Shown in pieces: positions 8,191 to 32,385 of a DNA stretch of 64,000 bases. The notes beneath the pieces are model-generated. The model was not told the DNA's origin, did no database searches, and saw only the letters and a list, made by a program, of their open reading frames with translations. Made by a program: the position numbers and the translations under genes. How positions within the stretch are numbered: position 1 is the first letter of the stretch; each line of letters begins with the position of its first letter. This DNA comes from Bacteroidales bacterium (lineage in GTDB: Bacteria > Bacteroidota > Bacteroidia > Bacteroidales > VadinHA17), in NCBI GenBank assembly GCA_009877105.1, contig WXFD01000006.1:74497-138496 (forward strand). Reading direction: 5' to 3'.

Positions 8191-8194
8191 CGAA

Positions 8195-10261: not shown

Positions 10262-10696
10262 CTAACTACATGACAAAAATTTACAGCTTTGGGTAAATTT
10301 ATCTATATCGTTGATAAAATGCAAGTTTGTGTCTTTTCGTTCCTGCATCGAAAAGTTCCCGAACTTTGGCATTATATGGAAAAGAACAGGAAAGGCAACT
10401 CCCTTGCATGAAATGGCCAAAGTAAGGATATTAATGTTGCTGGTGCCTAACTTCCAGTTTGTTCTGTCCAGTGCCAGCCTGAATGGTGGTTTAAGCGGGA
10501 GCAGAGCAAAAATAAACCTGGCAACCCGGTCCGAGTCCAGGGAATACTCCGACATAAACCTCTGTATTCTGCGAAGTGATGATTCATACTTTACATCTGA
10601 GTCAAAACCACAGGCCAGCTTTTCGAAGCAGACAGTTTGCACTTTGCATAAAGCACTGATAAATAAGCCAAAGAACTTAATACGTGCAAGGTTCAT
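10262..10696 (-). pseudogene. N-terminal third of an IS4-like DDE transposase
   Basis: MNLARIKFFGLFISALCKVQTV.FEKLA...LRRIQRFMSEY...DRTNWKLG..NINILTLAI..KGVAFPVLF resembles the N-termini of Bacteroidota IS4-family transposases (~380 aa). This ORF ends at 144 aa inside the terminal repeat. Confidence 0.55.
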
Positions 10697-10900
10697 TTTG
10701 TTTCCGAAGAACTCTTTTAACGTATCTGATTAAATTGTAACTTTGTTTTCAACCCTGGTTTCCATTGTTAGAAATAGTATTGATAACAGTATACTAATCT
10801 ATAGAATATCAAAGCCTTTATGCTGATATTTTAATCTGTATTTATTAAAAAGTACAACAGAACATATTAACGATCTGTTGGTTGACATTTTTTGTCATGT
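10268..10900 (-). mobile_element. Internal-deletion derivative of a DDE insertion sequence bounded by inverted repeats
   Basis: ACATGACAAAAA at 10268-10279 is the reverse complement of TTTTTGTCATGT at 10889-10900, extendable to about 14/17. The repeats enclose the truncated transposase ORF and its 5' leader. Confidence 0.5.
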
Positions 10901-10943
10901 GCTGAGGCAAGAATGTTAATCTACAACAGTCCTGATAATAGTC

Positions 10944-11477
10944 CTAATTATTTGAGGAAGGCTGATTTGGATTCCCGAAAGGTGCTTTCTTTTCCTCAAG
11001 CTTCAATCGCTGCTCTTTTTTCCCTATGACAAAAACCGTAGCAAGAGAAATTACTGTGCTTCCACCCAGGACACAAGCGACGGCTTCATGTCCAAACATT
11101 GCCAAAGCTACAGCTGATCCTAAAGTAAAAAAAGCTATTATTAATCCAAATATTTGTCCTCGGCTTGACTGTTTCACCTGTCCTGATATAACGGTTTCCT
11201 CAATCTTAATTCTATGGCTGGATTGATTCTCCGCCATCTTCATAATTCTATCCGCTCCATCAGGAATAATTTGATTATATTTCTCTAATGCTTCAGGAGC
11301 AGGTATAGGTCCACTATAGGATTGATATGATGAAACAATGACAGATCTAATCTTTTTTTGCTCTTCCTGCGAAAGCTTTCCAAGGATTGGCTTTAACTCG
11401 TCTGGAACTGCGTAATTCGGGTTTGAGGGCTCAATGCCCTGTCCATTCGTGTGTTTTAAATCCTTTTTAAGGGGCAT
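10944..11477 (-). CDS. DUF2335-domain membrane protein
   Basis: YSGPIPAPEALEKYNQIIPDGADRIMKMAENQSSHR followed by two TM helices, the layout I associate with DUF2335. Confidence 0.6.
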   Translation of the reverse strand: MPLKKDLKHTNGQGIEPSNPNYAVPDELKPILGKLSQEEQKKIRSVIVSSYQSYSGPIPAPEALEKYNQIIPDGADRIMKMAENQSSHRIKIEETVISGQVKQSSRGQIFGLIIAFFTLGSAVALAMFGHEAVACVLGGSTVISLATVFVIGKKEQRLKLEEKKAPFGNPNQPSSNN

Positions 11478-11480
11478 TAT

Positions 11481-11717
11481 TTAAAATGGTAAAACGAGTT
11501 GTTTGTGGTTTTCCTTCTCGTATCCTGAAATGGCCTGTTTAATATCTTCACCAATAATGTTCCAATCAGATGCTATTGCTATTTCATCTGCTTCTTCAGC
11601 GCTAGGAGAATAGTTATAGTTAAAATAGTTACCTGCCAGATTAAAAATACTACCCATTCCAATGACAAAGGAGTTTGCTGTCAAGAAATCCGTTTGGTAC
11701 ATATTTTTGTTATTCAT
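11481..11717 (-). CDS. Small hypothetical protein (78 aa) immediately upstream of, and probably co-transcribed with, the DUF2335 gene
   Basis: ORF with a 3-nt gap to the next gene on the same strand. I recognised no motif. Confidence 0.45.
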   Translation of the reverse strand: MNNKNMYQTDFLTANSFVIGMGSIFNLAGNYFNYNYSPSAEEADEIAIASDWNIIGEDIKQAISGYEKENHKQLVLPF

Positions 11718-11947
11718 AACAGTAATGTAAAATATCAGAATAATATAACGTAAAAAGTGATGAAATGTTCTTTAATTACTTTCCTCCAGCGCAGATTATT
11801 GTTAATAACACCTACTAAGTTAATAAGAATATTCAAACTAATAAAATGCATTTTGAACGAAAAAGACACAAATATCACATTTTTATCAATGCAAAACAAT
11901 TCTCATGCCATTTCGGATCCCATTATTATTATTTCCCCAAGCTTAAG

Positions 11948-12084
11948 AATTTTCCCCATATCTCTTAATAACTCACGGTTCAATGTTTCAAACCTCTTGT
12001 CTACAAAGAAAAAGTCCCGCCGCATTAGCGGCGGGACTTTTTCTTTGGGCTGTCACCCCTCCGAGGATCATGAAATAATCCTCC
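11948..12084. repeat. Repeat copy C (short form), containing a bidirectional terminator hairpin
   Basis: The left part matches copy B. CTACAAAGAAAAAG and CTTTTTCTTTGGGCTGTCACCCCTCCGAGGATCATGAAATAATCCTCC match copies A and B. AAAAAGTCCCGCCGC-atta-GCGGCGGGACTTTTT (12009-12042) replaces the long nested insert found in A and B. Confidence 0.8.
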
Positions 12085-12381: not shown

Positions 12382-12981
12382 ATGAGAAATTTAATGTTCA
12401 TTATATTGTCAGCAACCATTTTGATGTTAGGATATTCATGTAATAAAGAAGAAACCAATCCTGCAATTGAATCAAGGACATTTGAAGTTAATTCAAGCAA
12501 CTCGCGCCACTGGGTATATTTTAGTTTTTCAGAAGATGACTCCGTTACCGTAACTGATCCCTCTGCATCAAAGGATTGGGACCTGGCTTTCCAGCGCTAC
12601 AGGATTAAAACCAACGGAGGAGACTCGGGAAACGGGCAGGGCAGTGCAGCAAACACCTATCAAAAAGGGCAAACCGGATTTGATGCAGTGAAATCCGTAC
12701 ACGACACCCTCAGATTTCTTCCAGACGGTCCGGTTATAATCGCAGTGCAGCAGGGCTATGAAACCTTTACCATCAATCCTGCATTATATACATGGTTTAC
12801 CATGGAACAGGCAACCCAGGGAACCCAGATTGCTCCTTCTGACTATATCTATATTGTAAGGACAGCCAGGGGTAAATATGTAAAAATATGGTTCAAAAGC
12901 TACTACAGTGCAACAAATAAGTCGGGCCATATCACATTTCAGTACAAATATCAGCCGGATGGCTCCGGGAGTTTTGAGTGA
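12382..12981 (+). CDS. hmuY: HmuY-family lipoprotein (putative hemophore-like protein)
   Basis: Lipobox LGYSC. The DWDLAFQRYRIKTNGGDSGNGQG block is typical of the HmuY family, and the gene sits directly upstream of a TonB-dependent receptor. Confidence 0.7.
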   Translation: MRNLMFIILSATILMLGYSCNKEETNPAIESRTFEVNSSNSRHWVYFSFSEDDSVTVTDPSASKDWDLAFQRYRIKTNGGDSGNGQGSAANTYQKGQTGFDAVKSVHDTLRFLPDGPVIIAVQQGYETFTINPALYTWFTMEQATQGTQIAPSDYIYIVRTARGKYVKIWFKSYYSATNKSGHITFQYKYQPDGSGSFE

Positions 12982-13020
12982 ACAATCCGTATAAACCATG
13001 CGGATCAAATAACTTGACTG

Positions 13021-15132
13021 ATGCCGGCAATCTTTCTGAAACTTTCAGTGGTCTTCTGTTTCATATTCTTCCCTTTTGAGCTTGCTGCCCAGAAAGGAAG
13101 CTTATCAGGTTTTGTACGGGGTCAAAATGAGGAGGCAATTGAAGCGGCAACGCTGGTAATTAAAAATACTACACTCGGAACGGTAACTGACAGGAGCGGC
13201 TTCTACAAAATTAGCGGCATAAATCCGGGGACGTACTCCGTCCGGGTGTCACTGGTCGGATACGAGACAGTGGAAGAAACCATCACGATAAGGGAAAGTG
13301 AGAATCATGAGGATTTTACCCTGGTCGAGTCAAACATAAATCTAAACGAGGTTGTTGTAACAGGTACAAGATCAGAAAAAGCATTAAAAAATGTACCTGT
13401 GATAACACAGGTGATAAGTGCACGGAGAATGCTTGACCTGGGTATCACAACCGTTTCCGGGGCTTTGCAAAGCATGGTGCCCGGCCTGGATATCAGCCAG
13501 TTCGGTACCAGGGCCACCGTAACCCTCCAGGGAATGGATGCAAAGTATGTATTGTTCCTTGTTGACGGGGAAAGGATCGCAGGGGAAGTCAGCGGCGACA
13601 TAGATTATTCGATGCTGAATATGGAAAATGTTGAAAGAATTGAAATTATCAAGGGAGCTTCCTCATCATTATACGGGTCAAACGCCATCGGAGGCGTCAT
13701 AAACATCATCACAAAAAAAATTGATGAGCCCTTCAATGCAAGGCTCTATTCAAGATATTCAAAGTTCAATGAATTTACAACCGGCGGGGGAATCAGCTTC
13801 AGAAAAGGGATATCAGGATCACTGACAAGCTTTAATTTCAGCAGTAACGACGGGTATGACAATACCCCTGAAAGTCCGTATGAATGGACTCAGAATCCAT
13901 ATACTTCTTTCAGTGTAAATCAAAAATTTGAGATAACACCTTCATACCGGTTGTCACTGACTCCTTATTTCGGATATTACCGGTTTGAAAGAGGAAATGT
14001 GAGTGCCCGTCCTGTCCATGATCTGTACACCGATTTTAAAGCCGGCCTGAAAGGTGAATACTATTTCGGGATGCATTCAGTTGACTTTTCCTATTACAGG
14101 GACCGATACAATACCTATAATGTCTTTGAACTCCTGAACAATGAGAGGGATACTGCATCCTATGACATCATCCAGACCATCAGGACGCAGGGAAATTTCA
14201 GGATCTCCGACAAAAATACCCTGATAACCGGTTTGGAATACAATTATGAAAAACTGTTATCGGACAGGATTGAAGAAGGGATCAAAAATGCCGGTGAAGC
14301 GGTGCTGTACATTCAGGAAGATATTTCTCCCGGGAAAAAATGGAATATTATCGGAGGTGTCAGGGTAAGCTATCACAGCAATTACGGATTTAATGCAGCG
14401 CCCAAGCTATCCCTGATGTACAAGTCACCGGTCGGAAATTTCAGGGCTTCTGCAGGAACAGGGTTCCGCTCGCCTTCCCTGAAAGAATTATATATGAATT
14501 TTGACCATTTCGGAGAATGGTATTTAATTGGTAATGCCGGCTTAAAACCAGAATCATCGCTTTATGTTTCAGGATCATTTGAATTTACAAAGCCATGGAA
14601 CAACTCATCCGTATCAGTATATCACAATTCAATTTCCAATATGATCACCGACAGATGGCTGCCTGACACCACTCGCCTGACCCGTCAATACGAGAATGTG
14701 GCAAGCGCCTCCGTGTCCGGCATAGACTTCCTTTCAAAACAGAAAATCATCAAAGGCCTGTGGCTCAATGCTGGTTATAATTACGTTCACTCCCATGACA
14801 ACGAGACCGGTCTTCAGCTATATGGTACCGCAAAACATTCCGGAACCATTTCATCAGATTATAATTTCAGGAAAAGAAATTATTCATTGACGGTCCAGCT
14901 CCTCTGCAAGCTGACGGGTGAAAAATTTTATGAGATCACAGACGAAGGCATTGACCGTGACAGGCCCTTCAGTACATGGCGATTAACCATATCACAGGAA
15001 TACAAATGGTTACGAGTCTCAACCGGAGTGGATAACATTTTTAACCTGGTACTTCCGCAAAACAATAATTATATTTCTCCAGGAAGACGTTTTTTTGCTG
15101 GCCTTAATATTGATTTCGGAAAAATCAGGTAG
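13021..15132 (+). CDS. TonB-dependent receptor with an N-terminal carboxypeptidase-regulatory-like domain (HmuR-like)
   Basis: Signal peptide, a CarbopepD_reg-like segment (GFYKISGINPGTYSVRVSLVGYE), a plug region (VVVTGTRSEKALKNVPV, IEIIKGASSSLYGSNAIGGVINI) and a beta-barrel C-terminus. Confidence 0.9.
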   Translation: MPAIFLKLSVVFCFIFFPFELAAQKGSLSGFVRGQNEEAIEAATLVIKNTTLGTVTDRSGFYKISGINPGTYSVRVSLVGYETVEETITIRESENHEDFTLVESNINLNEVVVTGTRSEKALKNVPVITQVISARRMLDLGITTVSGALQSMVPGLDISQFGTRATVTLQGMDAKYVLFLVDGERIAGEVSGDIDYSMLNMENVERIEIIKGASSSLYGSNAIGGVINIITKKIDEPFNARLYSRYSKFNEFTTGGGISFRKGISGSLTSFNFSSNDGYDNTPESPYEWTQNPYTSFSVNQKFEITPSYRLSLTPYFGYYRFERGNVSARPVHDLYTDFKAGLKGEYYFGMHSVDFSYYRDRYNTYNVFELLNNERDTASYDIIQTIRTQGNFRISDKNTLITGLEYNYEKLLSDRIEEGIKNAGEAVLYIQEDISPGKKWNIIGGVRVSYHSNYGFNAAPKLSLMYKSPVGNFRASAGTGFRSPSLKELYMNFDHFGEWYLIGNAGLKPESSLYVSGSFEFTKPWNNSSVSVYHNSISNMITDRWLPDTTRLTRQYENVASASVSGIDFLSKQKIIKGLWLNAGYNYVHSHDNETGLQLYGTAKHSGTISSDYNFRKRNYSLTVQLLCKLTGEKFYEITDEGIDRDRPFSTWRLTISQEYKWLRVSTGVDNIFNLVLPQNNNYISPGRRFFAGLNIDFGKIR

Positions 15133-20402: not shown

Positions 20403-21073
20403 AATTTAATCCTGAGTGAAAATGAATTAATCTGACAGGTTCTATTAAATAAACATAAATATAAAACGTATTTTAACAATCTTATTAAACTTGTTCAATG
20501 AATCTTTAAAAAGGATTAATATTAAGATCAACTGGCAGCTCAATCCTGCTGTTCCGTAAGCTGAAAGGTGAGATATTCCGCGAAATCATATTCGGTATAA
20601 CTGACAGTGACCTTCATTCCCGTAATTGCTGATTTAGCATACTTCGGGCATACAAATGGTTACAGTTTCAACCCTGGTCGATAATATCATTGTCCTGGCT
20701 ATCCCGCAGGACAATAATTGTATTTCTCACGGAAGATGTTTTTCAGTGGATTCGGAAAGAACCGGACAGTATATTATTGTCCTGCTATTTTGATCAATCA
20801 ACGGGACATGCTTAACAGCCCCGTGTAGTAGCGGGATTACAGAATACATTCTCCTTTGCGGGACTTTCTGCTGCCATCCGGCAAATAACTTTTTTCATGA
20901 TCAGCTCAAGGAGAATCAGGAAGGCTCCCGAAAAGAGAGGATAAAATAACAGGCATTAACAATCTGAGCAAATAGGTGGGGACTCTTCATTATTTCGTAT
21001 TTTTACGGATTACGGGTATATACTTATTATCAGCCGTTCTGATATAATGATCCCGCCGCGCGATATCTGTTCT

Positions 21074-21532
21074 TCAAATCGCTGCCAGTCCAGCCTCATC
21101 CAGAGTGCAGTTAAGCCATTCACTGTTAATTGCAGCGCCCCATTTCCTGTAGAAATCAATAGCCCGTTCGTTCCAGTCCAGAACCTGCCACCTTACACGT
21201 TTGCAGTTTTCCTCCCTTGCTTCCTTCAAAACCCTTTCCATCAGAGCAGATCCAATCTTACGGCCTCTGTGTTCCTTTCCGACAATAATATCCTCGAGAT
21301 AGATCGATTTACCCACCCAGGTGGAATAAGCTATAAAACAGAGGGCCATTCCAATGATTTTATGATCTGTCGTTTCGGCAACAAAGCATCTGAAAAATTC
21401 CTTCTCATTTTTCATCTGCTCGACTGTATTGGTCACAAGATCAAGCGATCGCTCATACTCCGCAAGTTCTTTTATAAGATGGAGAATTGCCGGGAAATCA
21501 TCTTCCCCTGCACGTCTGATAGTGTAATCCAT
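21074..21532 (-). CDS. GNAT-family N-acetyltransferase
   Basis: Size (152 aa) and the acetyl-CoA motif EHRGRKIGSALMERV. The opposite-strand ORF 21047-21559 has no recognisable features. Confidence 0.85.
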   Translation of the reverse strand: MDYTIRRAGEDDFPAILHLIKELAEYERSLDLVTNTVEQMKNEKEFFRCFVAETTDHKIIGMALCFIAYSTWVGKSIYLEDIIVGKEHRGRKIGSALMERVLKEAREENCKRVRWQVLDWNERAIDFYRKWGAAINSEWLNCTLDEAGLAAI

Positions 21533-21621
21533 GTCTGTTTCTTAAGGCTGGTCTTTTAAAATGGAGGCTGGAAAATAACGGGAATTTCTGATTCAATATC
21601 TGTACAATTCCGGCATGAAAG

Positions 21622-22281
21622 TTATTTCACCAAAGTAATTTCCTTTACATTCGGGTTGTTCTCCAGTTCCCTGATTATCGTTTCGATTGATTTCTGATCC
21701 TGTTTTGCAATACGTAAATTTAATACCATACCATCATCACCTTTTTCAACTGACAGGGACTCAATTTTAAAAACATCATTATTAAGCAGATTTCTGAGTA
21801 AATCAATACTGTCTGTCACGATTTTCAACGAATTGTATCTGAACCTGCCGGAAAAGATCCTCTCAAATGGCTGAAGTGCCCAAAGGATAATCAACGCAAT
21901 AACCGTGGTGGCCCCGGCCGCAAAATAAAGTCCGCCTCCGGTGGCAAGCCCAATTGCGGCAACTGTCCACAATCCTGCAGCTGTTGTCAGCCCGTGGATA
22001 ATTCCTTCTTTTGATAGCAGGATTGTTCCGGCCCCAATAAATCCAATACCGGTAATAACTTGTGCAGCAATCCTAGAGGGATCGAGTGTAACATGGGGGG
22101 TGCCAAGAATATCGGCAAATCCGAAAGCTGAGACTATCATTATTAAACAGGAACCGACACAAACCATCATATGGGTTCTCAATCCTGCCGCCCAGTTTTT
22201 CCTTTCGCGCTCCAGGCCAATAAGTGCACCAAACAAGGAAGCCAACAGCAGACGCAACAGTATTTCAGTCCAGCTGATCAT
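21622..22281 (-). CDS. MgtC/SapB-family membrane protein
   Basis: LLLASLFGALIGLERERK start motif, 4-5 TM helices and a soluble ACT-like C-terminal domain. Confidence 0.85.
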   Translation of the reverse strand: MISWTEILLRLLLASLFGALIGLERERKNWAAGLRTHMMVCVGSCLIMIVSAFGFADILGTPHVTLDPSRIAAQVITGIGFIGAGTILLSKEGIIHGLTTAAGLWTVAAIGLATGGGLYFAAGATTVIALIILWALQPFERIFSGRFRYNSLKIVTDSIDLLRNLLNNDVFKIESLSVEKGDDGMVLNLRIAKQDQKSIETIIRELENNPNVKEITLVK

Positions 22282-22477
22282 TTTATGTCAATTTTGTGCC
22301 TAACAGGCTAAGTCATTTATTCTTCTCCCTGTCAATGCGGGAATCGTTATGGGAGGACTGTCATAAACTGAGGATGGATCACCGCAAATCAGTTTTAACA
22401 TGTAAGATCTGCCCGAAAAAAGAACGGAAGATGAAATACTGATATGTGTTCCAGAATATTCCATCTGCCCGTACGGC

Positions 22478-22849
22478 CTATTCAAACTCTTTTGGAACGC
22501 CGCAAATCATCCTGAACGGCTGGCTGCCCGTGTTCCGGTACTGGTGCTTTTCATCGGGTTTGACAAGGGCAAAGTCACCTTTCCGTAGAGAGATCATCTC
22601 TCCTTTTTCATTAACAAGGGCTCCCTCGCCCTCGATAACATAGTTCATGTGCTCATAGGGATGGCTGTGATACGGGGTATGTCCTCCCTGTTCAACAGTG
22701 AACACCCTGTAGGAATATACCGGGGCACCGTCTGAACTGCCAAGCGGCAATTGTTTCCATGCCCCGACAGCTCCCTCCATGCTGACTTTGTTCTTTTCAA
22801 CATTATCGAGTGAAACAACTTTCATGATGATGTTTTTTGATTTATACAA
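22478..22849 (-). CDS. Cupin-domain protein
   Basis: GGHTPYHSHPYEHMNYVIEGEG ... GDFALVKPDEKHQYRN is the two-motif cupin signature. The true start may be the internal ATG at 22825. Confidence 0.8.
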   Translation of the reverse strand: MYKSKNIIMKVVSLDNVEKNKVSMEGAVGAWKQLPLGSSDGAPVYSYRVFTVEQGGHTPYHSHPYEHMNYVIEGEGALVNEKGEMISLRKGDFALVKPDEKHQYRNTGSQPFRMICGVPKEFE

Positions 22850-22983
22850 AAATAATCAGTTAGAGACAAAAATCAGCCTGAACGGATAAAAAGCATTGTT
22901 TTTACTGTTAAAACATTAACAAGGATACCTGGTTTCAGATAATATTCAGTATCCTGACCATTCAGGAAGTTCATCTCCCCCCG

Positions 22984-23736
22984 TCATATGCCAAGCATAT
23001 CCATTAATCCGTTGATGAACGTGAGGGGATGGGCCGGGTTGCCCGGGACGTAAAGGTCAACATGATGTTTTTCAATGAAATCCCGTGCAATAGCGGGACT
23101 GTCTGCAAAAAGTCCGCCACTGATGGCATCTGTTCCGCAGAGAATAATAACCTTGGGTGAAGGTGTAGCCTCGTATGTTATTTCAAGTGCTTCGGCCATG
23201 TTTTCGGTTACCGGGCCTGTTATAACTATGCCGTCGGCATGACGGGGTGAGGCCACGAACTCGATACCGAACCGTCCCATGTCGAAGTTCACATTTCCGG
23301 CCGCGTTCAGCTCCATCTCGCACGAGTTGTCACCTCCGGCCGATACCTGCCTGAGTTTAAGGGATCTTTTAAATAACCGGCGAACTTCCTGCCTGACAGC
23401 CTTACCGTCGAAGCCGGGAGATCCGTTATTACCGGGCTTAACAATCAGATCTTCCCTTTTTGATGCTGCAATACGGTAATCATTGGTAAACCTGAATATT
23501 TCAGGGAAATTCAGTGCGCACTCGTTGCAGAACATGCACCTGCCCAGATCCAATGAACCGGTTTGCTTATCGATGGCTCCCGTGGGACAAAGGCTGGCAG
23601 CAGCCTCGATCCGTGAAGGTTCTCCCCCGGCAGTAATAACCGGCATACCCCTGAAGCGTTCTGACACCGGCTGATTACGAAGATCGGGAACGTACTGGAG
23701 ACCATGATCGGAAAGTATCCTAAATTCTTTTCTCAT
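22984..23736 (-). CDS. NuoB/HycG-like small subunit fused to an N-terminal single-cluster ferredoxin-like domain (EhrS-like)
   Basis: SPRHADGIVITGPV and CGTDAISGG are NuoB-family blocks. The N-terminus has C50-PTGAI plus C67-xx-C70-xx-C73. The expected CxxC reads D136-NS-C139 and PGCPP reads PGN233PA. Confidence 0.8.
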   Translation of the reverse strand: MRKEFRILSDHGLQYVPDLRNQPVSERFRGMPVITAGGEPSRIEAAASLCPTGAIDKQTGSLDLGRCMFCNECALNFPEIFRFTNDYRIAASKREDLIVKPGNNGSPGFDGKAVRQEVRRLFKRSLKLRQVSAGGDNSCEMELNAAGNVNFDMGRFGIEFVASPRHADGIVITGPVTENMAEALEITYEATPSPKVIILCGTDAISGGLFADSPAIARDFIEKHHVDLYVPGNPAHPLTFINGLMDMLGI

Positions 23737-23753
23737 GTTTTCTTACCCGTTAA

Positions 23754-25280
23754 TTACAGATCATTGCCGCAATACGACAAATTAAAGCTCTTGTTACAGA
23801 CCGGGAAGTCTGATATTTCCTGGTTACGGACAGCCAGTGCCAGGGCCATCCAGTTATGCAGCGAGGGGTCCTTGATCCTGTAATGGACCAGGCGGCCGTT
23901 GATGCCGGTAACTGCTACATGGCAAATCTCACCCCTCCAACCTTCAACCACCGATACGGCGAGGCTGCCGGGTCTGAACCCCAGTTCGTACCGGGGGCGT
24001 TCGGTTTCCTTTTTCATTTTGCTCCATTCACCTGTCAGCCCGCGGATGATATTCACCGATTCATTCACTTCCATCGCCCGGAGCATTCCCCGCGACATCA
24101 CGTCACCACGTTCCTGCAACACCGGGTTTATTACCGTTTGCCTGTAATACTGGAACGGGTGGGTGGCCCGGGTATCCCTTGGGATACCGCATGTCCGGGC
24201 AGCCATGCCTACTGCTCCAACAGCCAATGCCTGCTGCCTGGTCAGTGTTCCTGTTTCCTCGAACCGGCCGAGCACACTGGGCAGGGTATAAATACAACTG
24301 ACAATATTCCCGAATCGCCTTTCAACCTCTTCAAGCACCCTGAGTATCTCGACGGTGATCTCTTCAGTGAGAGGGTAATTTGATCCCCCCGGGCGTATCA
24401 GTCCCTTACCGAACCGGTTGCCACACCAGAACTGGGTGGTATTTATCACCATTGTCCGCAGTGCCTCGCATGCAACCTGCCCCAGCTGGTAGGCCACGTC
24501 GGTGCACAACGCTGCCGTATCGCCAATATGTACAGCGATACGTTCAAGCTCGAGGGCTATACAACGTTCAACCTGGAGTGACCCTGGAGGGTTAAAACCG
24601 GCAAGTGACTCGACAAGCTGGGCATGAGCCAGTCCATGGCCAACTGCAGTATCACCTGCGATGCTTTCTGATAATAAAACGCGGCGAAGCCCGTCACCCG
24701 TTTCGGTAAAAAGACTCTCTACACCACGATGCTGATAACCAAGCTGAATCTCGAGATGCAGTACTTCTTCCCCGTTGCAGGTAAACCTGAAATGACCCGG
24801 TTCAATAACTCCGGCGTGAACGGGCCCGACACCAACTTCATGAAGTGCTTCTCCCGCCATCGTGTAAAACGGGTAATTATTCATCACGCTGAGCTTATCG
24901 GCCCTGTAGCTCGGGTATCGCACCGGTTTTAACCAGGGGTGACCCTCGAACCTCACACCGTGACGTTCATGTATTTCACGTTCAAAAATATGCATTGCAC
25001 TGCACGAGGGGGTCAGTGATTGCAGTGCTGAATCATCATCTCCCTTCTCGTGACTGAATATCCTTATAAGTCCCGATGAATCATCCGCTATGCAGCAAAT
25101 GAACCGCAGGCCGGCTCCAACAGGGTGGCAAAAATAATTCAGGCAATGACAATCATCCCGGTTCAGCATCGCCGTAACTTCTTCCCGGAAAAGGGAATAA
25201 TCAAGCACCGGTATGCCTGTCGTGTCAACCGGGGTGGAATCGTTACGTATTTCAAGATATCTCCTGCCGTTCATCTTCAT
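23754..25280 (-). CDS. NuoC-NuoD fusion / HycE-HyfG-like large subunit lacking the [NiFe] cysteine ligands (EhrL-like)
   Basis: GPVHAGVIEPGHFRFTCNGEEVLHLEIQLGYQHRG is the hallmark group-4 large-subunit block, and the N-terminus has the NuoC-like FEREIHERHGVRFEGHP. The L1 position reads SESIAGDTAVGH (residues 204-215). The C-terminus ends ...NLSYCGNDL. Confidence 0.85.
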   Translation of the reverse strand: MKMNGRRYLEIRNDSTPVDTTGIPVLDYSLFREEVTAMLNRDDCHCLNYFCHPVGAGLRFICCIADDSSGLIRIFSHEKGDDDSALQSLTPSCSAMHIFEREIHERHGVRFEGHPWLKPVRYPSYRADKLSVMNNYPFYTMAGEALHEVGVGPVHAGVIEPGHFRFTCNGEEVLHLEIQLGYQHRGVESLFTETGDGLRRVLLSESIAGDTAVGHGLAHAQLVESLAGFNPPGSLQVERCIALELERIAVHIGDTAALCTDVAYQLGQVACEALRTMVINTTQFWCGNRFGKGLIRPGGSNYPLTEEITVEILRVLEEVERRFGNIVSCIYTLPSVLGRFEETGTLTRQQALAVGAVGMAARTCGIPRDTRATHPFQYYRQTVINPVLQERGDVMSRGMLRAMEVNESVNIIRGLTGEWSKMKKETERPRYELGFRPGSLAVSVVEGWRGEICHVAVTGINGRLVHYRIKDPSLHNWMALALAVRNQEISDFPVCNKSFNLSYCGNDL

Positions 25281-26708
25281 TTATTTTGGAAATATGGCAA
25301 TACTCCTGCTGATCATGTCAACCAGGAAAGGAGGCTGATAGAAGCAGGCCGCTATAACCAGGCCAAGCAGGACAAACTGGCTGATCGTCTCTGCCGGGTT
25401 AACAGCATCAGGCTGACCCGTGCTTCCCTCACTCCTGGGCGATGAAAAGCTGATATGCATTATCCGGGTGCTCATGGCATAAATAACGAAGGTGAGCAAT
25501 ATAACGGACACAACAAGTACAAGCCATTGACCGCCGGTTACCATTGCCCTGAATATCATGAATTCGGGAATGAACATGCCGGAAGGCGGTATTGCAAGAA
25601 TTGTGATCATCCCGGTCAACAGGACGGCGCCCCCGGCCGGGTACAGTTTCATATACCTCCCGCATTCATCCAGTCTGAAGGTATGAAGTATCCTGGAAAG
25701 CTGCCCCATCTGGTAAAACAGGCTTGACTTTGCCAGCGAATGAAGAATTATCAGCAGTAAGGCTGCGTAATAACCCTGTCCTCCAATTCCCAGGGCGATG
25801 GCGACAAGTCCCATGTTTTCAAAACTGGAATAAGCCAGCATACGTTTCACGTGTTTTGCCTTAAGCATGTACCCGGCAGCTACCAGAAGTGACAACACTC
25901 CTGCAAGTATCAGCACGCTGTTCATGAATGGCAGAACAGGGGAAGAGGCGAAAAGCGAGTACACACGGAAGATCCCCAGGAATCCGACATTCATCAGGGT
26001 GGTGGAGATCAGGGCGCTCACCGGGGGGGGTGCCACCGAATGGGCGTCAATGGTAACGGTATGCATCGGGAACAGCCCCATCTTTGTACTGAAACCCACG
26101 ACCACAAACACGAAGGCGATCTTCAGGTAGAGCGGGTCGGCCATTGCCGCCACCTGTGACAACGATGAAAAGGAGAGATTGGGAGTATCGCCCCTGCCGT
26201 AGATGAGGCCCAGGAACAATATACCCAGGTACGCCAGGGCAATACCGGTAGAACAGATAAAAATATATTTCCAGGTGGCCTCCAGGGCAATCTCAGTCCG
26301 GTCGTGATAAATAAGAACTGCAACGGCAAGCGTGGTGGCTTCCACGAATATCCACAACACCGTCATGGTATTTGCAAGGTAAGCCCCGGTCATGAATGTC
26401 ATCAGGCTGATCAACCCCGAGTGATAGATATTGAATCGTTTCAGCGTGTCGTAACGTGTATAAATAAATCCATGATAAACGGTTGGCAATGTAAGTAATG
26501 CCAGGACAGAAAGAAGGAGTACCGAAGTGCCGTCGAAGGTAAAATATGAAAGTTCAGTGCTGCCAGTGTTAATCCACGCGTGTATGGCAAGAGCAATGAG
26601 CGAGGCTGAGAAAACCACTGCAATCCCCTTGGTAATGGCCTTACCCGGCGAGAGAAGGGCAAAGCCGGCGAGTAGAATCGATAAAATGAAAAATATCAGA
26701 AGCATCAT
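25281..26708 (-). CDS. NuoM/NuoN/HyfF-like antiporter-type membrane subunit (EhrD-like)
   Basis: About 14 TM helices. KMGLFPMHTVTIDAHSVAPPPVSALIS matches the proton-conducting-membrane-transporter motif. Confidence 0.85.
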   Translation of the reverse strand: MMLLIFFILSILLAGFALLSPGKAITKGIAVVFSASLIALAIHAWINTGSTELSYFTFDGTSVLLLSVLALLTLPTVYHGFIYTRYDTLKRFNIYHSGLISLMTFMTGAYLANTMTVLWIFVEATTLAVAVLIYHDRTEIALEATWKYIFICSTGIALAYLGILFLGLIYGRGDTPNLSFSSLSQVAAMADPLYLKIAFVFVVVGFSTKMGLFPMHTVTIDAHSVAPPPVSALISTTLMNVGFLGIFRVYSLFASSPVLPFMNSVLILAGVLSLLVAAGYMLKAKHVKRMLAYSSFENMGLVAIALGIGGQGYYAALLLIILHSLAKSSLFYQMGQLSRILHTFRLDECGRYMKLYPAGGAVLLTGMITILAIPPSGMFIPEFMIFRAMVTGGQWLVLVVSVILLTFVIYAMSTRIMHISFSSPRSEGSTGQPDAVNPAETISQFVLLGLVIAACFYQPPFLVDMISRSIAIFPK

Positions 26709-26710
26709 AT

Positions 26711-27325
26711 TTAATCCTTCAACATGGTTAGCTCATTTGTATGGGGCTTAAGTTTTAAGCCGAAAAACCCAAGTATCAGCGCGCCCACGAACAGGTCGAG
26801 CAATATGCCAATGTTGATAAGCATCGGCATTTCGCTTCCTACTGCCAGCGAGAAAAGGAAGACTGCATTTTCAACAACCAGGAACCCGATCAGGTGTGAA
26901 ATGATAAGCTGATGGGTCACGATTAGCAGCAGACCCGTGTAAAGCGTGAATAGAGCGATGGCCAGATATATTGTGTTGATAAATGGATTCAGCAGGATTC
27001 TGGCAAGACTGACACTGATCAGCAGCCCGGCAATTGAGAACAGTAGCAGGTAAAAACCGGGGACTGCCTGGCGATGTACCCTGGTAACTCCCGAGCGTCC
27101 GATTATCCTGCCAAGCAGCCAGGGCAATATCATTGCCTTGAAGAAAAGCGTCTCGGCAATGATGAATAAAAGGTTTACCAAGTTAACCTCCTTCAGCTCG
27201 AACACCGCGATACCACATAACAGGAGACCATGCAGCGCGATCAGCCTGACATATGTTGAAAGCCTTTCTGCCGAGGCAAAATAGATCAGGGTGACAGCAA
27301 ATGTAACGATCAGGTAGTTTACCAT
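26711..27325 (-). CDS. HyfE-like small membrane subunit (EhrC-like)
   Basis: A 204-aa, all-hydrophobic protein with about 6-7 TM helices. Its position between the NuoH-like and NuoN-like genes matches hyfC-hyfE-hyfF. Confidence 0.65.
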   Translation of the reverse strand: MVNYLIVTFAVTLIYFASAERLSTYVRLIALHGLLLCGIAVFELKEVNLVNLLFIIAETLFFKAMILPWLLGRIIGRSGVTRVHRQAVPGFYLLLFSIAGLLISVSLARILLNPFINTIYLAIALFTLYTGLLLIVTHQLIISHLIGFLVVENAVFLFSLAVGSEMPMLINIGILLDLFVGALILGFFGLKLKPHTNELTMLKD

Positions 27326-27331
27326 TTCCTT

Positions 27332-28243
27332 TCAGACAAGTTTTTCAGTCAGTATCAGTATAACCATAAATGCAATAAGTGCGATGGTTGTAAGTGTGAG
27401 AATAAATTTCGGATTTTTGTTCATCTTGTTGCGCGCCCTGAATGACTCTGTTATACCGATTATCACGGCAAACAGGGTCTGAACGCCAAAAAAGGCCCCG
27501 ATTTTCAGCAAAGTGTTCCATCCTGCCGGCACGAGCAGGTTATAAATGAGCGAACCATATAACGCGAATTTCAGGTTTGTTGCCATATGGATGAGGGCTT
27601 TGTCGAATCCGCTGTAGTCGAGGATTATCACTTCATGGACCATTGTAAGCTCCAGGTGGGTTTTCGGGTCATCGACAGGAAGCCTGCTGTTTTCCACCAT
27701 TGCTATCTGAACGAAGAGGTAAGCGCCTATTATGCTGTAGATGAACACGTAATCATTGCCGGTAATGTAGAAATGATTGAAGATCACCGAGAACGAAGTA
27801 TATGAGGAGAACATCGCGAATGTGGCCAGCAGGATAAAAAAAGCAGGTTCAACCAGCATGGAATATAGGGCCTCGCGGCTGGCGCCCATTCCTTCAAAAC
27901 TGCTCCCCGTGTCGAGAGCGGCAATGATCATGAAGAATTTTCCAAGAGCGAGCAGGTAAGCAAACATGATAAAGTCGCCCTCGAAATGCAGAATGGCCTT
28001 ATGCTCTGAAAATGGAAGCAGGAGCATGGCGCCAGCCACCGATATCAGCGCCACTGATGGAGCAATCCTGAAAATAAGCCCGGTGCTGATGCTGAAAACA
28101 CTACCCTTTCGCAGGAGCACGGCAATGTCCTTCAGGGGCTGGAACAGGCCGGGACCCTTCCGCCCCGAAGCAATGCTCTTCGTCCGGAGTATTATTCCGG
28201 GAAAGAAAAGGGCCGCTATCACGATCAGAATAAATCCTGTCAT
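27332..28243 (-). CDS. NuoH/HycD/HyfC-like membrane subunit (EhrB-like)
   Basis: GRKGPGLFQPLKDIAVLLRKG N-terminal motif and 8 TM helices. Confidence 0.85.
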   Translation of the reverse strand: MTGFILIVIAALFFPGIILRTKSIASGRKGPGLFQPLKDIAVLLRKGSVFSISTGLIFRIAPSVALISVAGAMLLLPFSEHKAILHFEGDFIMFAYLLALGKFFMIIAALDTGSSFEGMGASREALYSMLVEPAFFILLATFAMFSSYTSFSVIFNHFYITGNDYVFIYSIIGAYLFVQIAMVENSRLPVDDPKTHLELTMVHEVIILDYSGFDKALIHMATNLKFALYGSLIYNLLVPAGWNTLLKIGAFFGVQTLFAVIIGITESFRARNKMNKNPKFILTLTTIALIAFMVILILTEKLV

Positions 28244-28245
28244 TT

Positions 28246-30240
28246 TCAGATAATATTGAATAACGAAAGCAACAGTACAAGAAGCATGAACAGGAAAGCA
28301 TATAATATGTAATGCCTGATCTGCCCTGTCTGCATCACCGCTATCTTTTTCAGCAATCCCGAGAGCCGGTTCACGGGCAAGTCGATAAGATAGAGCCTGA
28401 AAATGTCATGACTCCGGGTAAAGAATTCACGTTTGCCGGGGAACAATTCATTTTCATCGGGTAAATCAACAATCTTTCCTGTACGCAGCACGGGTTTTGC
28501 AAGCACGTTGAAATTCCCCGAAAACGAGTTAGCCGTGTATTGATGCCGAGGTGTTATCGCGGTGTAGCCGCAACCCCAGGTTGGACCAGCCTCGACGACT
28601 CTCCTGCTCAAATGATACCGACGGTACAGGAGCAATGCACCCAGGGTGACCACAAGAATGCCACCGGCAAGGCTGATCCGCGACAAATTATAGGATAAAG
28701 CACCGGCAACCATTGGCATACCTTTCAGGCCCCATGTTATCATAACGTTGTTGAACACCGGTTTTACTACGACAGAGGAACCCAAGCCGACCAAAAGTAT
28801 CAATCCCACTGTAAATACCTGGGGAATAATCATACCCGGCGTCGTCTCTCCCGCGTGGTTCATTGCTGCAGTCCTGGCTTCACCGAGGAAAACAATGCCA
28901 AACGCCCTTGTAAAGGCAAAAAGCGCCAGGCCTCCAATGAGTGACAGGGCAAGAATTGCCACGATCATAAGCAGTGAAATATATAGGGTGGCGTCGGAAA
29001 GGCTGTAAAACATACCCATGTAAATCAGGTATTCCGAAATGAACCCGTTGAAGGGAGGCAGTCCGCAAATAGCCAGAGACCCGGTTAAAAACATCATGGC
29101 AGTCCACGGCATCTTCTTCATCAGCCCTCCCATTTGCTCCATGTTCCTGGTGTGGGTGGCATAATAAACCGATCCGGCATTGAAAAACAGAAGCGACTTG
29201 AAGAGCGAGTGGTTAAAAACGTGCAGTAAAGCACCGGCGAATCCAAGCAGGGCCAGCGATTGACTTCCAAGGGCCTGTCCTGTCACTCCAAGTCCAAGGC
29301 CTATGCCAATAATACCGATATTTTCTATGGTGCTGTATGCCAGCATCTTCTTCATGTCGCTCTGAACCAGGGCCATCATGATTCCTCCAAGCCCCGACAT
29401 GATTGATATTACCAGAATGAATATCCCCGTCGCCAGGAGGTCAGACTGCATCGAGGCCAACACCCGAGCTATACCATAAATACCCATTTTTATCATCACA
29501 CCCGACATTATTCCAGAGACATGCGACGGGGCCGCCGGATGAGCCTCCGGCAGCCAGGTATGCATGGGAACGAAACCTGCCTTGATGGCAAACCCAACAA
29601 AGAAAAGCAGGAACAACGGCAGGTTGTGATGGCCGTCAAAATATTCTGCCAGGGCATCAAAACTCAACCGCCCGGTAGATCTGTAAACAAGAAGGAAAGC
29701 TATCAAAATGAAAAACATCCCGACATGCATCTGGATGAGATAACTGATACCGGTTTTCATGATCTTCCTGTCTTCCGCCTCAAAAATCACGAGGAAAAAG
29801 GATGATAAAGCCATGATTTCCCATGCAACCAGGAAGGCAAGTCCGTCGCGCAGCATGACAACCATCAGCATCGAGAGCCAAAGCCAGAAGTAGGAAAAAA
29901 AATGAATCGAGAAACGAGTATTTTGCTTTGTCTGCCGGTAAGGGGCCAGATAACCCCGGGCATAAAAAAATCCGATCAGAACTGTTATATTAATAACAAT
30001 GACGAAGAAAGCACTCAGGCTGTCAAGGGTCAAAACAAAACCAGGGCCATGAGCGGGCCGGAAAAGGATCAATTCAATGGCAGGAGCCGATCCTGTAAGG
30101 ATATCAATAGACCATGAGCCGGAAAGAGCCACGCCGGCCAGCAGCAGGGCAAGGGTGAAATAATACTTGAGAGGCTCAGACACTGCAAATATCAACAGAG
30201 ACAGGGCAATGATGATTAGGAATGCAACGGAACCAAACAT
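28246..30240 (-). CDS. NuoL/HyfB-like antiporter-type membrane subunit (EhrA-like)
   Basis: WEIMALSSFFLV and HTWLPEAHPAAPSHVSGIMSGVMIKMGIYG motifs. 664 aa and highly hydrophobic. Confidence 0.88.
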   Translation of the reverse strand: MFGSVAFLIIIALSLLIFAVSEPLKYYFTLALLLAGVALSGSWSIDILTGSAPAIELILFRPAHGPGFVLTLDSLSAFFVIVINITVLIGFFYARGYLAPYRQTKQNTRFSIHFFSYFWLWLSMLMVVMLRDGLAFLVAWEIMALSSFFLVIFEAEDRKIMKTGISYLIQMHVGMFFILIAFLLVYRSTGRLSFDALAEYFDGHHNLPLFLLFFVGFAIKAGFVPMHTWLPEAHPAAPSHVSGIMSGVMIKMGIYGIARVLASMQSDLLATGIFILVISIMSGLGGIMMALVQSDMKKMLAYSTIENIGIIGIGLGLGVTGQALGSQSLALLGFAGALLHVFNHSLFKSLLFFNAGSVYYATHTRNMEQMGGLMKKMPWTAMMFLTGSLAICGLPPFNGFISEYLIYMGMFYSLSDATLYISLLMIVAILALSLIGGLALFAFTRAFGIVFLGEARTAAMNHAGETTPGMIIPQVFTVGLILLVGLGSSVVVKPVFNNVMITWGLKGMPMVAGALSYNLSRISLAGGILVVTLGALLLYRRYHLSRRVVEAGPTWGCGYTAITPRHQYTANSFSGNFNVLAKPVLRTGKIVDLPDENELFPGKREFFTRSHDIFRLYLIDLPVNRLSGLLKKIAVMQTGQIRHYILYAFLFMLLVLLLSLFNII

Positions 30241-30461
30241 CGGAAATACATTTGACCGCGAATGTATAAAATATCAGATTCAAAAATCAATCCTGATTCC
30301 CGGACGTGAGTGATAAATAATGATTCGGGGTTGTTTCACCTGGTTCATCCTGGGACCGGCAAAATATCTTGCCATGGTGCCTGAATGATGAATATCAGTA
30401 CCCCGGCACCAGGATAGTTACATAAACTTATGCTATTTTTACCGGTTACTATAAGGACCGG

Positions 30462-31373
30462 ATGAATGAAAGGAAAAAAGTAGCCTGGGCTTACGCGGGC
30501 CTTACACTGATGACACTTATTATCGGGTTCTCCTTCATTTTTGTCAAGATTGCCCTCAGGCATGCCCCGCCTTCTGACCTTCTGGCGCATCGCTTCACCA
30601 CTGCCACTATCGGATTAATTATCTATTATGTCTTTAACAGGAGAAAACGGCCAGGGATAAAAAGGGAAAATATTCCTGCCCTGCTGGCCTTATCACTGTT
30701 CTACCCCTTGCTGTTGTTCGGATTTCAAACCCTTGGGCTCAAATACACGTCAGCCTCTGAGGCCGGGATCATCTCGGCTGTTACACCAATCATAACCCTG
30801 GTTCTTGCCGCCCTGTTCCTGAAAGAAAAAAATACCCCGGTGCAAATCCTTTTCGTTTTATTGTCCGTATCGGGGGTAATCTATATCATGTACAGGAACG
30901 GGATAACCGCGATAACCGGAGCAAGCATGAAAGGCAACATGCTGATTCTCCTGTCGGTTATCTCGATAGCCATATATTATGTCATGGGGAGAAAAGCCAA
31001 TAAACAGTTCAATTCCATGGACATCACCTTTTTCATGAGTCTCACGGCATGCATCGTGTTCAACTGCGCCGCGGTCGCCATGCATGTAAAATCAGGAAAC
31101 CTTGCCCACTATTTCGACGCGTTTAAAAACCCGGGATTTCTTTGGCCCATCCTCTATCTCGGGATTCTTTCCACCTTCCTGACGTCCTTCCTTGGCAACA
31201 ATGCACTGTCGGTGATACCGGCTGCGCAGGTGTCAATATTCAATAATTTCAGCCCGGTGATTTCAGTGTTTGGCGGGGTGTTCTTCCTCAATGAAACACT
31301 TAAGGGATGGCATATCATAGGTGGAATACTGGTACTGGGAGGAATAATAGGCGTTAACTATTTCCGGAAGTGA
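30462..31373 (+). CDS. DMT-superfamily (EamA-like) transporter
   Basis: About ten TM segments in two similar halves, about 300 aa. Confidence 0.8.
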   Translation: MNERKKVAWAYAGLTLMTLIIGFSFIFVKIALRHAPPSDLLAHRFTTATIGLIIYYVFNRRKRPGIKRENIPALLALSLFYPLLLFGFQTLGLKYTSASEAGIISAVTPIITLVLAALFLKEKNTPVQILFVLLSVSGVIYIMYRNGITAITGASMKGNMLILLSVISIAIYYVMGRKANKQFNSMDITFFMSLTACIVFNCAAVAMHVKSGNLAHYFDAFKNPGFLWPILYLGILSTFLTSFLGNNALSVIPAAQVSIFNNFSPVISVFGGVFFLNETLKGWHIIGGILVLGGIIGVNYFRK

Positions 31374-31578
31374 AAAAAACCGGCTTCCATACCCGACTAT
31401 TCCTCCCCGCGGTACCCGTATTTTAGTGTTAATCAATTAACAAATGAGCTTTTCGCCTTATTCCTGCTACGCTCCGATTAACAGGACAGATACTAATTTC
31501 AACCCTCACGGCGTCCTGCTTGCATGTTACTTACAGGAATACAAATAATTCTTGTTTAAATACTTTTAAGGTTGCTGT

Positions 31579-32385
31579 CTAGTCTTCCTGAACAACAAAA
31601 TCCCACATGTACTCGACTTCTGGCGTACATTCAATATCTATGTCATCTATATCGCAATCCCATTCAAGGTTGCCATTAATGTCAATCAGTTTATTGACGC
31701 ACGTTGCTACAACTCCTCCGCCAAGCCTCCATAAGATTTTGGCAGTCTTACCGGATTTGATCGTAAATCCGCCCACTTTTTCCTTTGCTGAGCCAAGCTT
31801 GAATTTCCCATCTACTAAGGAAAAGTTACCCCCGGTGCTGAAATAGTCATCCGGTGCCCATGAGGTGTCAGCCGGATCGCAGGGATCGGTTGAACTGCCC
31901 ATCGTTTCCAGTAATTCATACACAACGTTGGGATCAGATATTAATTTACAGTGCCTGTAAAAGATGTTTCTAAACTTTATTTTGATGCTTTTATACTCAC
32001 CGGCTGGTAGTTCAACTGCCGGAAAGGTATAATCCTCGAAAAGTTTCAGCTCGTAATTGGTATCCTTAGTCAGCTTTATCCACTCCAGGTTGTCGGGTTC
32101 GCCTTCCCTTACAACCCCCTGTGAAACCCATACATCTCCAATCCCCAGTTTCATGCTTGTCATAATGGTTTCGGTTATTTCATCAACCAGTTTAGGATTA
32201 CCATCATCAGCTTTTGCCTGATTCACACCACCCTTGGAAGATCCTGCCATGGGATTAATACATTTAACTTCCAGGAAACCAGTGCCTGTAAGGTCATCAT
32301 CATTCCCTTTTTCCTAGCTGCAGCCCGCAAAAATAAGTGAAGCAGTAACCAAAATTCCAAATAATCTCATTGTTTTCATCATCAT
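31579..32385 (-). pseudogene. Lipoprotein gene (DUF4382-like?) interrupted by an in-frame TAG two codons after the lipobox Cys
   Basis: My minus-strand translation from the ATG at 32385 gives MMMKTMRLFGILVTASLIFAGCS-TAG(32316-32314)-EKGNDDDLTGTGFLEVKCINP-MAGSSKG..., which is in frame with the 223-aa track ORF. Confidence 0.6.

Follow-up and report, generated by a model that had tools for sequence, protein, structure and literature searches.

A Bacteroidota-specific Ehr-class membrane complex predicted to lack both the Ni-Fe site and the proximal iron-sulphur cluster

We analysed a 64,000-nucleotide stretch of contig WXFD01000006.1 from a Bacteroidales bacterium (hereafter the window), which carries an operon for a membrane complex that is a relative of group 4 [NiFe] hydrogenases and complex I. 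The operon consists of six minus-strand open reading frames (ORFs), 30240-22984, separated by gaps of 2, 6, 2, 0 and 17 nucleotides (nt), Table 1. An earlier reading, made from the sequence only, described six tightly packed co-directional genes in the order NuoL/HyfB-like, NuoH/HyfC-like, HyfE-like, NuoN/HyfF-like, NuoC-NuoD fusion and NuoB/HyfI-like, and the ORF coordinates together with Pfam, NCBIfam and hhalign agree with this order. The four strings quoted there, GPVHAGVIEPGHFRF, LEIQLGYQHRG, SESIAGDTAVGH and CNKSFNLSYCGNDL, are all found in the 508-residue protein.

The best NCBIfam match of the ehrA-like protein is hydrogenase 4 subunit B (4.6e-155, residues 5-658) and that of the ehrD-like protein is hydrogenase 4 subunit F (3.9e-69). 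The ehrC-like protein has no Pfam match, and its match to the NCBIfam hydrogenase 4 membrane subunit, 6.2e-7, is under the family cut-off. A profile of its family aligns with E. coli HyfE in hhalign (92.6%, E 4.5e-7, 170 columns), with no significant match to NuoK, NuoJ or NuoA. For the sixth gene the description as NuoB/HyfI-like holds as far as the NuoB domain is concerned; the protein is not a plain homologue, as a NuoI/HyfH half, with weak Pfam Fer4 matches on residues 62-90, is fused to it and three of the four proximal cysteines are lost. Because the sixth protein combines a HyfH half with HyfI, the genes are colinear with those of hyf, in the order hyfB-C-E-F-G-(H fused to I).

Complexes of the energy-converting hydrogenase-related (Ehr) class are defined as group 4 hydrogenase relatives without the Ni-Fe cysteines and with antiporter-like subunits (PMC6349859, PMC10284858), and HydDB leaves them out of its hydrogenase classes. 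The type example is Geobacter sulfurreducens GSU0739-0745, credited to Coppi 2005 and Marreiros et al. 2013 by PMC6349859 and PMC7894505, with the subunits EhrA, C, L and S named in PMC7894505. The subunit set and order in the window equal those of the Geobacter Ehr and fit the definition in PMC6349859, PMC10284858 and HydDB, as the first reading had supposed. Going by its predicted proteins, the locus is an Ehr-class membrane complex of the complex I superfamily and belongs to a Bacteroidota-specific subclass. The Ehr subunit set (NuoL/HyfB-, NuoH-, HyfE- and NuoN/HyfF-like, large and small subunit) was found in 80 genomic and about 50 metagenomic loci.

Table 1. Features of the six-gene operon and its upstream region, in window coordinates.
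Feature	Position	Strand	Evidence
ehrA-like gene, 664-residue HyfB/NuoL-type antiporter-like subunit	28246..30240	-	Pfam Proton_antipo_M 2.6e-56
ehrB-like gene, 303-residue HyfC/HycD/NuoH-type subunit, joins membrane and peripheral arms	27332..28243	-	Pfam NADHdh 1.2e-27
ehrC-like gene, 204-residue HyfE-like membrane subunit	26711..27325	-	NCBIfam and hhalign
ehrD-like gene, 475-residue HyfF/NuoM/NuoN-type antiporter-like subunit	25281..26708	-	Pfam Proton_antipo_M 1.1e-42
ehrL gene, 508-residue NuoC-NuoD fusion, large-subunit homologue without Ni-Fe ligands	23754..25280	-	Pfam Complex1_30kDa and Complex1_49kDa
L1 remnant SIAGDTAVGH, EhrL residues 206-215, replaces RxCGxCxxxH	24636..24665	-	Alignment to HycE RVCGICGFAH
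L2 remnant and C-terminus FNLSYCGNDL, EhrL residues 499-508, replaces DPCxxCxxR and extension	23757..23786	-	Alignment to HycE LDPCYSCTDR
ehrS gene, 250-residue fusion of NuoI/HyfH-type half-ferredoxin and NuoB/HyfI-type small subunit	22984..23736	-	Pfam Oxidored_q6 4.3e-21, residues 137-246
EhrS N-terminal NuoI/HyfH/HycF-like domain, residues 1-100	23437..23736	-	hhalign of family profile
EhrS NuoB/HyfI-like domain, residues 120-250, ligand positions D136, C139, D203, N233	22987..23379	-	Alignment to HycG, HyfI, MbhJ, NuoB
Divergent intergenic region 5' of the operon, presumed promoter site	30241..30461	.	Between ehrA start (30240) and EamA-family gene (30462)

The large subunit EhrL was aligned using MAFFT with E. 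coli HycE, HyfG and NuoCD taken from NC_000913. Among solved structures HycE is its nearest relative (7z0s_E, phmmer 1.4e-35), with MbhL and Nqo4 next. At L1, R239 and C241 of HycE are replaced by S206 and A208, I243 and C244 by D210 and T211, while G242 and H248 are kept as G209 and H215. At L2, C531, S533, C534 and R537 are replaced by S502, C504, G505 and L508, while Y532 and D536 are kept as Y503 and D507. All four [NiFe] cysteines claimed to be missing are therefore lost, their positions being Ala208, Thr211, Ser502 and Gly505. The replacements are conserved among the relatives used for residue counts (75-79 species, 49-78% identity): at L1 A208 is found in 72/79, G209 and D210 in 79/79, Thr or Ser at 211 in 76/79 and H215 in 74/79, and at L2 S502, Y503, G505 and D507 are each found in 78/78 and C504 in 73/78.

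The final residue of EhrL is L508 in all 78 relatives, whereas HycE and HyfG run on past the aligned R537. Mature HycE consists of residues 182-537 and thus ends at R537 (PMC9474812). EhrL stops at this maturation-cleavage position of HycE and therefore has no C-terminal maturation extension, in agreement with the first reading. The same is true for the reported absence of hyp, hyc, formate dehydrogenase and CO dehydrogenase genes from the window, as a Pfam scan of the 40 other ORFs found none. Could the complex still be a bona fide group 4 [NiFe] hydrogenase that uses unusual ligands? It is homologous to and colinear with hyfBCEFGHI, and HycE is the best structural match of EhrL. However, the four ligand positions hold no Cys, and the only cysteine close to them, C504, is one residue off and is more commonly Ser or Ala in distant Ehr. 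Together with the missing extension, the lack of hyp genes in the window and a small subunit without the proximal cluster (see below), this makes a hydrogenase next to inconceivable.

We ran an exhaustive HMMER search against 1.84 billion cluster representatives, which gave 4632 matches, and examined the best 150 (33-62% identity). Among these 150, L1 reads xGDx in 126 of the 144 representatives that cover it, L2 reads SYxG in 105 of 133, and CxxC is present in only five. The shared Ehr signature, xGD[ST]xxxH and SYxGxD[LR]-COOH, was derived in this analysis and is no published criterion; it is present in EhrL of the window and also in metagenomic Ehr loci. The pocket residues E160, H163, R165, G209, D210, H215, S502, Y503, G505 and D507 are common to all Ehr.

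The AlphaFold2 (AF2) model of EhrL, made with 39 homologues, has a predicted local distance difference test (pLDDT) score of 76 and a predicted template modelling score (pTM) of 0.82, with pLDDT below 50 exactly in the pocket-forming segments, 131-183 and 485-508. According to Foldseek the model is nearest to HycE (E 2.7e-23, TM-score 0.75), then to NuoCD fusions and MbhL, and no structure in the PDB up to April 2026 is nearer than HycE. With IEPGHFRF, the beta1-beta2 loop has the hydrogenase form, and the Glu of its EPGHFR motif, E160, the proton-relay residue of hydrogenases, is retained. Opposite the quinone-binding Tyr of E. coli NuoCD (RIEY motif) the alignment has the invariant Gly209, and at the position of the quinone-binding His of NuoD the window EhrL has a residue other than His.

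The small subunit EhrS starts with a half-ferredoxin, whose family profile matches E. coli NuoI (98.4%, E 7e-15), HyfH (97.5%) and HycF (97.5%) in hhalign. The first CxxCxxC motif is lost with its trailing Cys-Pro (C50-P51) kept, and the second one (C67, C70, C73) is kept with its trailing CP cysteine replaced by Phe77. C50, P51, C67, C70 and C73 are invariant in 75/75 relatives. In ferredoxins with two [4Fe-4S] clusters the ligands are swapped, so that the trailing CP cysteine serves the CxxCxxC of the other cluster; by this rule C50-P51 and C67/C70/C73 make up exactly one complete [4Fe-4S] site. Given this motif, EhrS presumably binds one [4Fe-4S] cluster, most likely the equivalent of N6b, because the nearest true hydrogenases appear to run on the same cluster and the proximal one. 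The ligands of Nqo9 agree with this equivalence.

In the second half of EhrS the best PDB matches are MbhJ (9e-24) and HycG (7.6e-20). Here C48 of HycG is replaced by D136 in 75/75 relatives, C51 corresponds to C139 in 60/75, C115 is replaced by D203 in 74/75, and C145 by N233 in 74/75. By this alignment three of the four proximal-cluster cysteines are lost, while the SPRHAD and PGxP motifs are kept. A single-sequence structure prediction of EhrS was unusable (pLDDT 35.7, pTM 0.23). Both the Ni-Fe site and the proximal [4Fe-4S] cluster are thus predicted to be missing from the peripheral arm.

The second of these losses separates the Bacteroidota complex from other members of its class. We fetched 80 metagenomic loci with a profile of distant Cys-less representatives. 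Of the small subunits from other (Cys-less) Ehr that cover all four positions, 53 out of 54 have CCCC at the proximal site, or 56 out of 57 when the nearest true hydrogenases are counted too. These hydrogenases (CGVC...CYSC) also carry the half-ferredoxin fusion with a four-Cys proximal site, and the sister type (AGDT...SYCGFDL, loci L125 and L128) is among the CCCC small subunits. Both L125 (Ga0315277_10000917) and L128 (Ga0172379_10000358) contain two tandem Ehr operons of different subfamilies; one of the two is, among four-Cys types, the nearest sister to the Bacteroidota type. The sole exception, L136:1059-1604 (Ga0172368_10010620), reads S-C-D-D and may be an independent second loss of the site. 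Some other Ehr operons begin with the small-subunit gene or do not have the half-ferredoxin fusion.

A neighbour-joining tree of the large subunits shows the Bacteroidota clade to be monophyletic and to branch from within the four-Cys lineages of Ehr. It follows that the half-ferredoxin fusion is the ancestral state and that the missing proximal cluster is a derived condition, which later became fixed. The residues by which the clade differs from other Ehr lie mainly in EhrS, at D136, D203, N233 and their neighbours. Asp-Cys-Asp-Asn is in this sense a within-class variant and not a published defining feature. The EhrL pocket is the same with or without the small-subunit cluster, which suggests that its role is independent of electron delivery. 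The literature searched contained no study of Ehr function or structure and nothing on the ligands of Ehr small subunits. We did not find the loss of the proximal cluster in Bacteroidota Ehr described in the accessible literature, the founding papers (Coppi 2005, Marreiros 2013) aside.

The spread of the family was studied by scanning one genome per GTDB species. At least 579 species-level genomes carry relatives, of which the best 80 loci were compared. Almost all of these are from Bacteroidota (Bacteroidales, Cytophagales, Chitinophagales and Sphingobacteriales), with one Ignavibacteriaceae metagenome-assembled genome (MAG). Rikenellaceae-like Bacteroidales MAGs, at 75% identity, and the cultured Arcticibacter eurypsychrophilus of the Sphingobacteriales are among the carriers. 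The gene order is the same in every complete locus, and about 70 of the 80 loci are complete with six intact ORFs; in locus L024 the HyfF-like ORF is split. A second tandem HyfB/NuoL-like gene gives a seven-gene operon in about 17 of the 80 loci, among them L048, L053, L057, L058, L063, L064, L066, L068-L071, L074 and L076-L079 from more distant Bacteroidota (Chitinophagales-, Cytophagales- and Sphingobacteriales-like). Geobacter may have a similar duplication, to judge by the subunit name EhrA-1.

The ratio of non-synonymous to synonymous substitutions (dN/dS), calculated by Nei-Gojobori for pairs with unsaturated dS (0.2-0.7), is about 0.02-0.2 across the six genes; the membrane subunits give 0.03-0.14, EhrL 0.11-0.21 and EhrS 0.08-0.13. 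The six-gene operon is functional and under purifying selection. As the replacements are near-invariant and dN/dS is low, the remodelled sites are functional and not decaying. The loss of two cofactor sites, in a class that was never assigned a function, might also be expected of a decaying relic or pseudogene array. However, dozens of invariant residues, including the replacements themselves, the intact ORFs and the low dN/dS in a family of at least 579 species make such a relic highly improbable. We looked for observations that would speak against the sequence-only reading, and found no Cys pairs at L1 or L2, no standard group 4 membership and no pseudogenisation.

That reading placed the complex in a Bacteroidota anaerobe, which is right for the phylum, while the family is not confined to anaerobes: next to anaerobic Bacteroidales the carriers include Sphingobacteriales, Chitinophagales and Cytophagales, which we take to be mostly aerobic.

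The changes in the peripheral arm contrast with the conservation of the membrane arm. In the ehrA-like protein E141, K220, H340, H344 and E403 align with E144, K229, H334, H338 and K399 of NuoL. In 66/66 relatives the first four do not vary; E403, a Glu as in HyfB and NuoM where NuoL has Lys, is Glu in 64/66 and Lys in 2/66. In the ehrD-like protein E123, K209 and E382 align with E144, K234 and E407 of NuoM and are invariant in 73/73 relatives; the position of NuoM K265 is Asn240, the same as in E. coli HyfF. The ehrB-like E132, D191, E198 and D209 align with E157, D213, E220 and E228 of NuoH and are kept in 68-69 of 69 relatives, with Lys194 at the position of NuoH E216. Conserved residues of the ehrC-like protein are E58, E152-N153 and D176. 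According to these alignments, all charged residues with a known part in ion transport by complex I, Hyf and Mrp are present in the membrane arm.

Of the well-studied systems, E. coli hydrogenase 4 (formate hydrogenlyase 2, FHL-2; hyfABCDEFGHIJ) is colinear with the window operon over hyfB-C-E-F-G-H-I, and hydrogenase 3 (FHL-1; HycBCDEFG; PDB 7Z0S) provides with HycE the closest match of EhrL in both sequence and fold. Compared with both, the window complex lacks the Ni-Fe ligands, the proximal cluster and the C-terminal processing peptide. Compared with Hyf, HyfH is cut to one cluster and fused to HyfI, and HyfA, HyfD, HyfJ, formate dehydrogenase (FDH) and the maturation genes are absent from the window.

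The subunits of the Q-module and membrane arm of complex I (Nuo) are homologous to those encoded here, NuoC and NuoD are fused as in E. coli, and the charged residues of the antiporters and the E-channel are conserved. Unlike complex I, the window complex has no N2 ligands and a Gly209 at the quinone Tyr position, and Pfam scans found no NuoA, NuoJ, NuoK or NuoEFG in the operon or elsewhere in the window. A complex-I-like quinone reductase was considered and rejected, since the N2 ligands are lost and the quinone Tyr has become an invariant Gly209.

The MBS/MBX (PDB 6U8Y) and MBH (6CFW) complexes of Pyrococcus furiosus are derived from group 4 as well, and MBS/MBX likewise gave up H2 chemistry. 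In MBS the proximal Fe-S cluster itself reportedly acts as the catalyst (Yu et al. 2020). In EhrS three of the four ligands of this cluster are missing and the similarity of EhrL to MbsL is weak (1.5e-9); with weak similarity to the 6U8Y chains, an MBS-like catalytic-cluster mechanism was also rejected. In contrast to MBH and MBS, no Mrp-type MbhA-G subunits are encoded in the operon. Among the Mrp antiporters, MrpA and MrpD are the counterparts of the two antiporter-like subunits here, which keep the Glu of transmembrane helix (TM) 5, the Lys of TM7 and the Glu of TM12 (E141/K220/E403 and E123/K209/E382). Unlike Mrp, the window complex includes a NuoH-like subunit as well as a complete peripheral arm, and no homologues of MrpB, MrpC, MrpE, MrpF or MrpG were recognised by Pfam, NCBIfam or hhalign.

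To search for partners, the ORFs up to 6 kb away from the operon were all clustered across the 80 loci. At most 15 of the 80 loci share any one neighbouring gene family, and no dehydrogenase or NuoEF-like gene is conserved beside the operon. The window neighbours (cupin, MgtC, GNAT, EamA) are not conserved beside any other copy. The family found in 15/80 loci is a Gfo/Idh/MocA-like oxidoreductase about 70 nt upstream on the same strand (e.g. L010:3368-4852). It is lineage-restricted, has a twin-arginine-like signal, was assigned by eye from the sequence and is absent from the window.

In FHL and complex I, electrons pass from the outer NuoI cluster to the inner NuoI cluster, the proximal/N2 cluster and the active site in steps below 14 A (PMC9474812 for FHL). 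Both the outer NuoI cluster site and the proximal cluster site are missing in EhrS. As the proximal cluster is gone, the route of electrons to the former active site is cut, and, going by the distances in FHL and complex I, the gap between the retained cluster and the pocket would be too wide for electrons to cross at a physiological rate. The cut path, the lack of a linked dehydrogenase in the 80 loci and the presumably aerobic carriers lead us to favour a redox-independent, gradient-driven translocator of protons or cations, comparable in principle to Mrp, over a redox-driven pump, which is unlikely. We hold this view tentatively, at somewhat less than an even chance. The first reading had called the complex an ion-translocating redox or redox-relic module; with the proximal ligands lost the redox part has become less likely, and a relic in the sense of decay is excluded by the intact ORFs and dN/dS.

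In a gradient-driven translocator the former cofactor sites would have been rebuilt as a polar, carboxylate-rich site formed by E160, D210, T211, H215, S502, Y503 and D507 of EhrL and D136, D203 and N233 of EhrS. This site might bind an ion or a small ligand, or it might control which conformation the coupling loops adopt. The one Fe-S cluster left would have a structural role, or would sense redox state or oxygen.

Several points weigh against a gradient-driven translocator. The function as an ion translocator is predicted from residue conservation, and the operon has no MrpB/E/F/G-type subunits. A secondary antiporter has no obvious need of a large, strictly conserved peripheral arm or of an Fe-S cluster, and the invariant CP...CxxCxxC argues for a persisting redox function or redox sensing. 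Since a few proteins use Asp as an Fe-S cluster ligand, a non-canonical metal centre at D136/C139/D203/N233 is conceivable. Finally, partner proteins could be encoded elsewhere in the genome.

A rival reading is a redox-driven pump, in which the retained [4Fe-4S] cluster accepts electrons from ferredoxin or an unlinked dehydrogenase and a substrate is reduced, either through a non-canonical D136/C139/D203/N233 centre or close to the retained cluster. None of the 75 relatives deviates from the one-cluster motif, and the same half-ferredoxin fusion occurs with a four-Cys site in the nearest true hydrogenases and other Ehr, so that the cluster is a working electron entry there. In proteomics, Ehr subunits were more abundant in formate-grown Geobacter (PMC7894505), and an FDH-Ehr complex has been proposed in the literature. 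However, the centre itself would have Asp, Asp and Asn at three ligand positions and a Cys in only 60/75 relatives at the fourth. We know of no Fe-S cluster with an Asp/Cys/Asp/Asn ligand set. A quinone as substrate is disfavoured by the invariant Gly209 at the Tyr position and by the loss of the His in the window EhrL, and the 80 loci offer no conserved dehydrogenase or NuoEF-like gene as electron donor. We regard a redox-driven pump as unlikely.

The conservation of the pocket also fits non-redox chemistry coupled to the gradient, such as hydration, hydrolysis or metal handling, by analogy with the CO2-hydrating CupA on cyanobacterial NDH-1 and with DabAB. D210, T/S211, H215, S502, Y503, D507 and the free C-terminal carboxylate of L508 are strictly conserved, Glu160 is retained, and the entire peripheral arm is under strong purifying selection. 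On the other hand, we recognised no catalytic motif, candidate substrate or conserved accessory gene, and the confidence of the AF2 pocket segments is too low to judge the geometry. Such an activity seems distinctly unlikely.

The idea of a gradient-driven translocator can be taken one step further. Bacteroidota Ehr might be a coupling machine of the complex I type without redox chemistry, in which the former Ni-Fe/quinone pocket and N2 site now form a carboxylate-lined site that binds an ion or ligand and either drives the conserved antiporter modules or is driven by them. We put this forward as a rather doubtful but conceivable extension. If true, Ehr complexes in general would not be oxidoreductases, since the pocket is identical in the cluster-bearing lineages.

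Ehr has been catalogued in many phyla since 2005 and is routinely filtered from hydrogenase surveys. A large conserved clade that dropped both the metal site and the adjacent Fe-S cluster and kept the ion-translocating apparatus narrows the possible functions, and it speaks against the widespread view of Ehr as an oxidoreductase linked to ferredoxin or formate. Should the complex work without electrons being transferred, it would provide a natural and independent test of the coupling between the pocket and loops of the peripheral arm and the antiporter modules in the complex I superfamily. Cultured carriers such as A. eurypsychrophilus make the question open to genetics and biochemistry.

Upstream of the operon, scans for sigma-70 promoters and terminators scored no better than shuffled sequences, and no Rfam family (riboswitch, leader) was above threshold within 21000-32000.

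Elsewhere in the window, the Pfam scan found the hallmarks of Bacteroidota, SusC/SusD, HmuY and TonB receptors. A desulfoferrodoxin (superoxide reductase) gene at 4263-4646 fits an anaerobic or microaerophilic host. After a tRNA-Met gene (4856-4928) comes a block of about 490 nt (4925-5413), of which a direct repeat lies at 8744-9131 (81-94% identity, spacing 3819 nt) and a third copy, of 51 nt, at 12034-12084. The first repeat interval has a low-GC segment (0.315 against about 0.46) that encodes an ABATE/CGNR zinc-finger regulator, an ORF of unknown function and a Fer4_16 protein. In the second interval there is an IS200-like Y1 transposase ORF (9439-9984, within 9439-10107), which is overlapped and flanked by GC-rich inverted repeats at 9510-9594 and 10022-10107. 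The region 4856-12084 looks like tandem tRNA-adjacent insertions with att-like repeats.

At 12382-15132 a HmuY-like haem-binding protein lies beside a TonB-dependent receptor, likely a haem uptake pair. A polysaccharide-utilisation-like locus occupies 45561-58903 on the minus strand, with two DUF2961 proteins, SusD, a SusC/TonB receptor, a member of the penicillin amidase family, DUF6786 and a LacI-type regulator.

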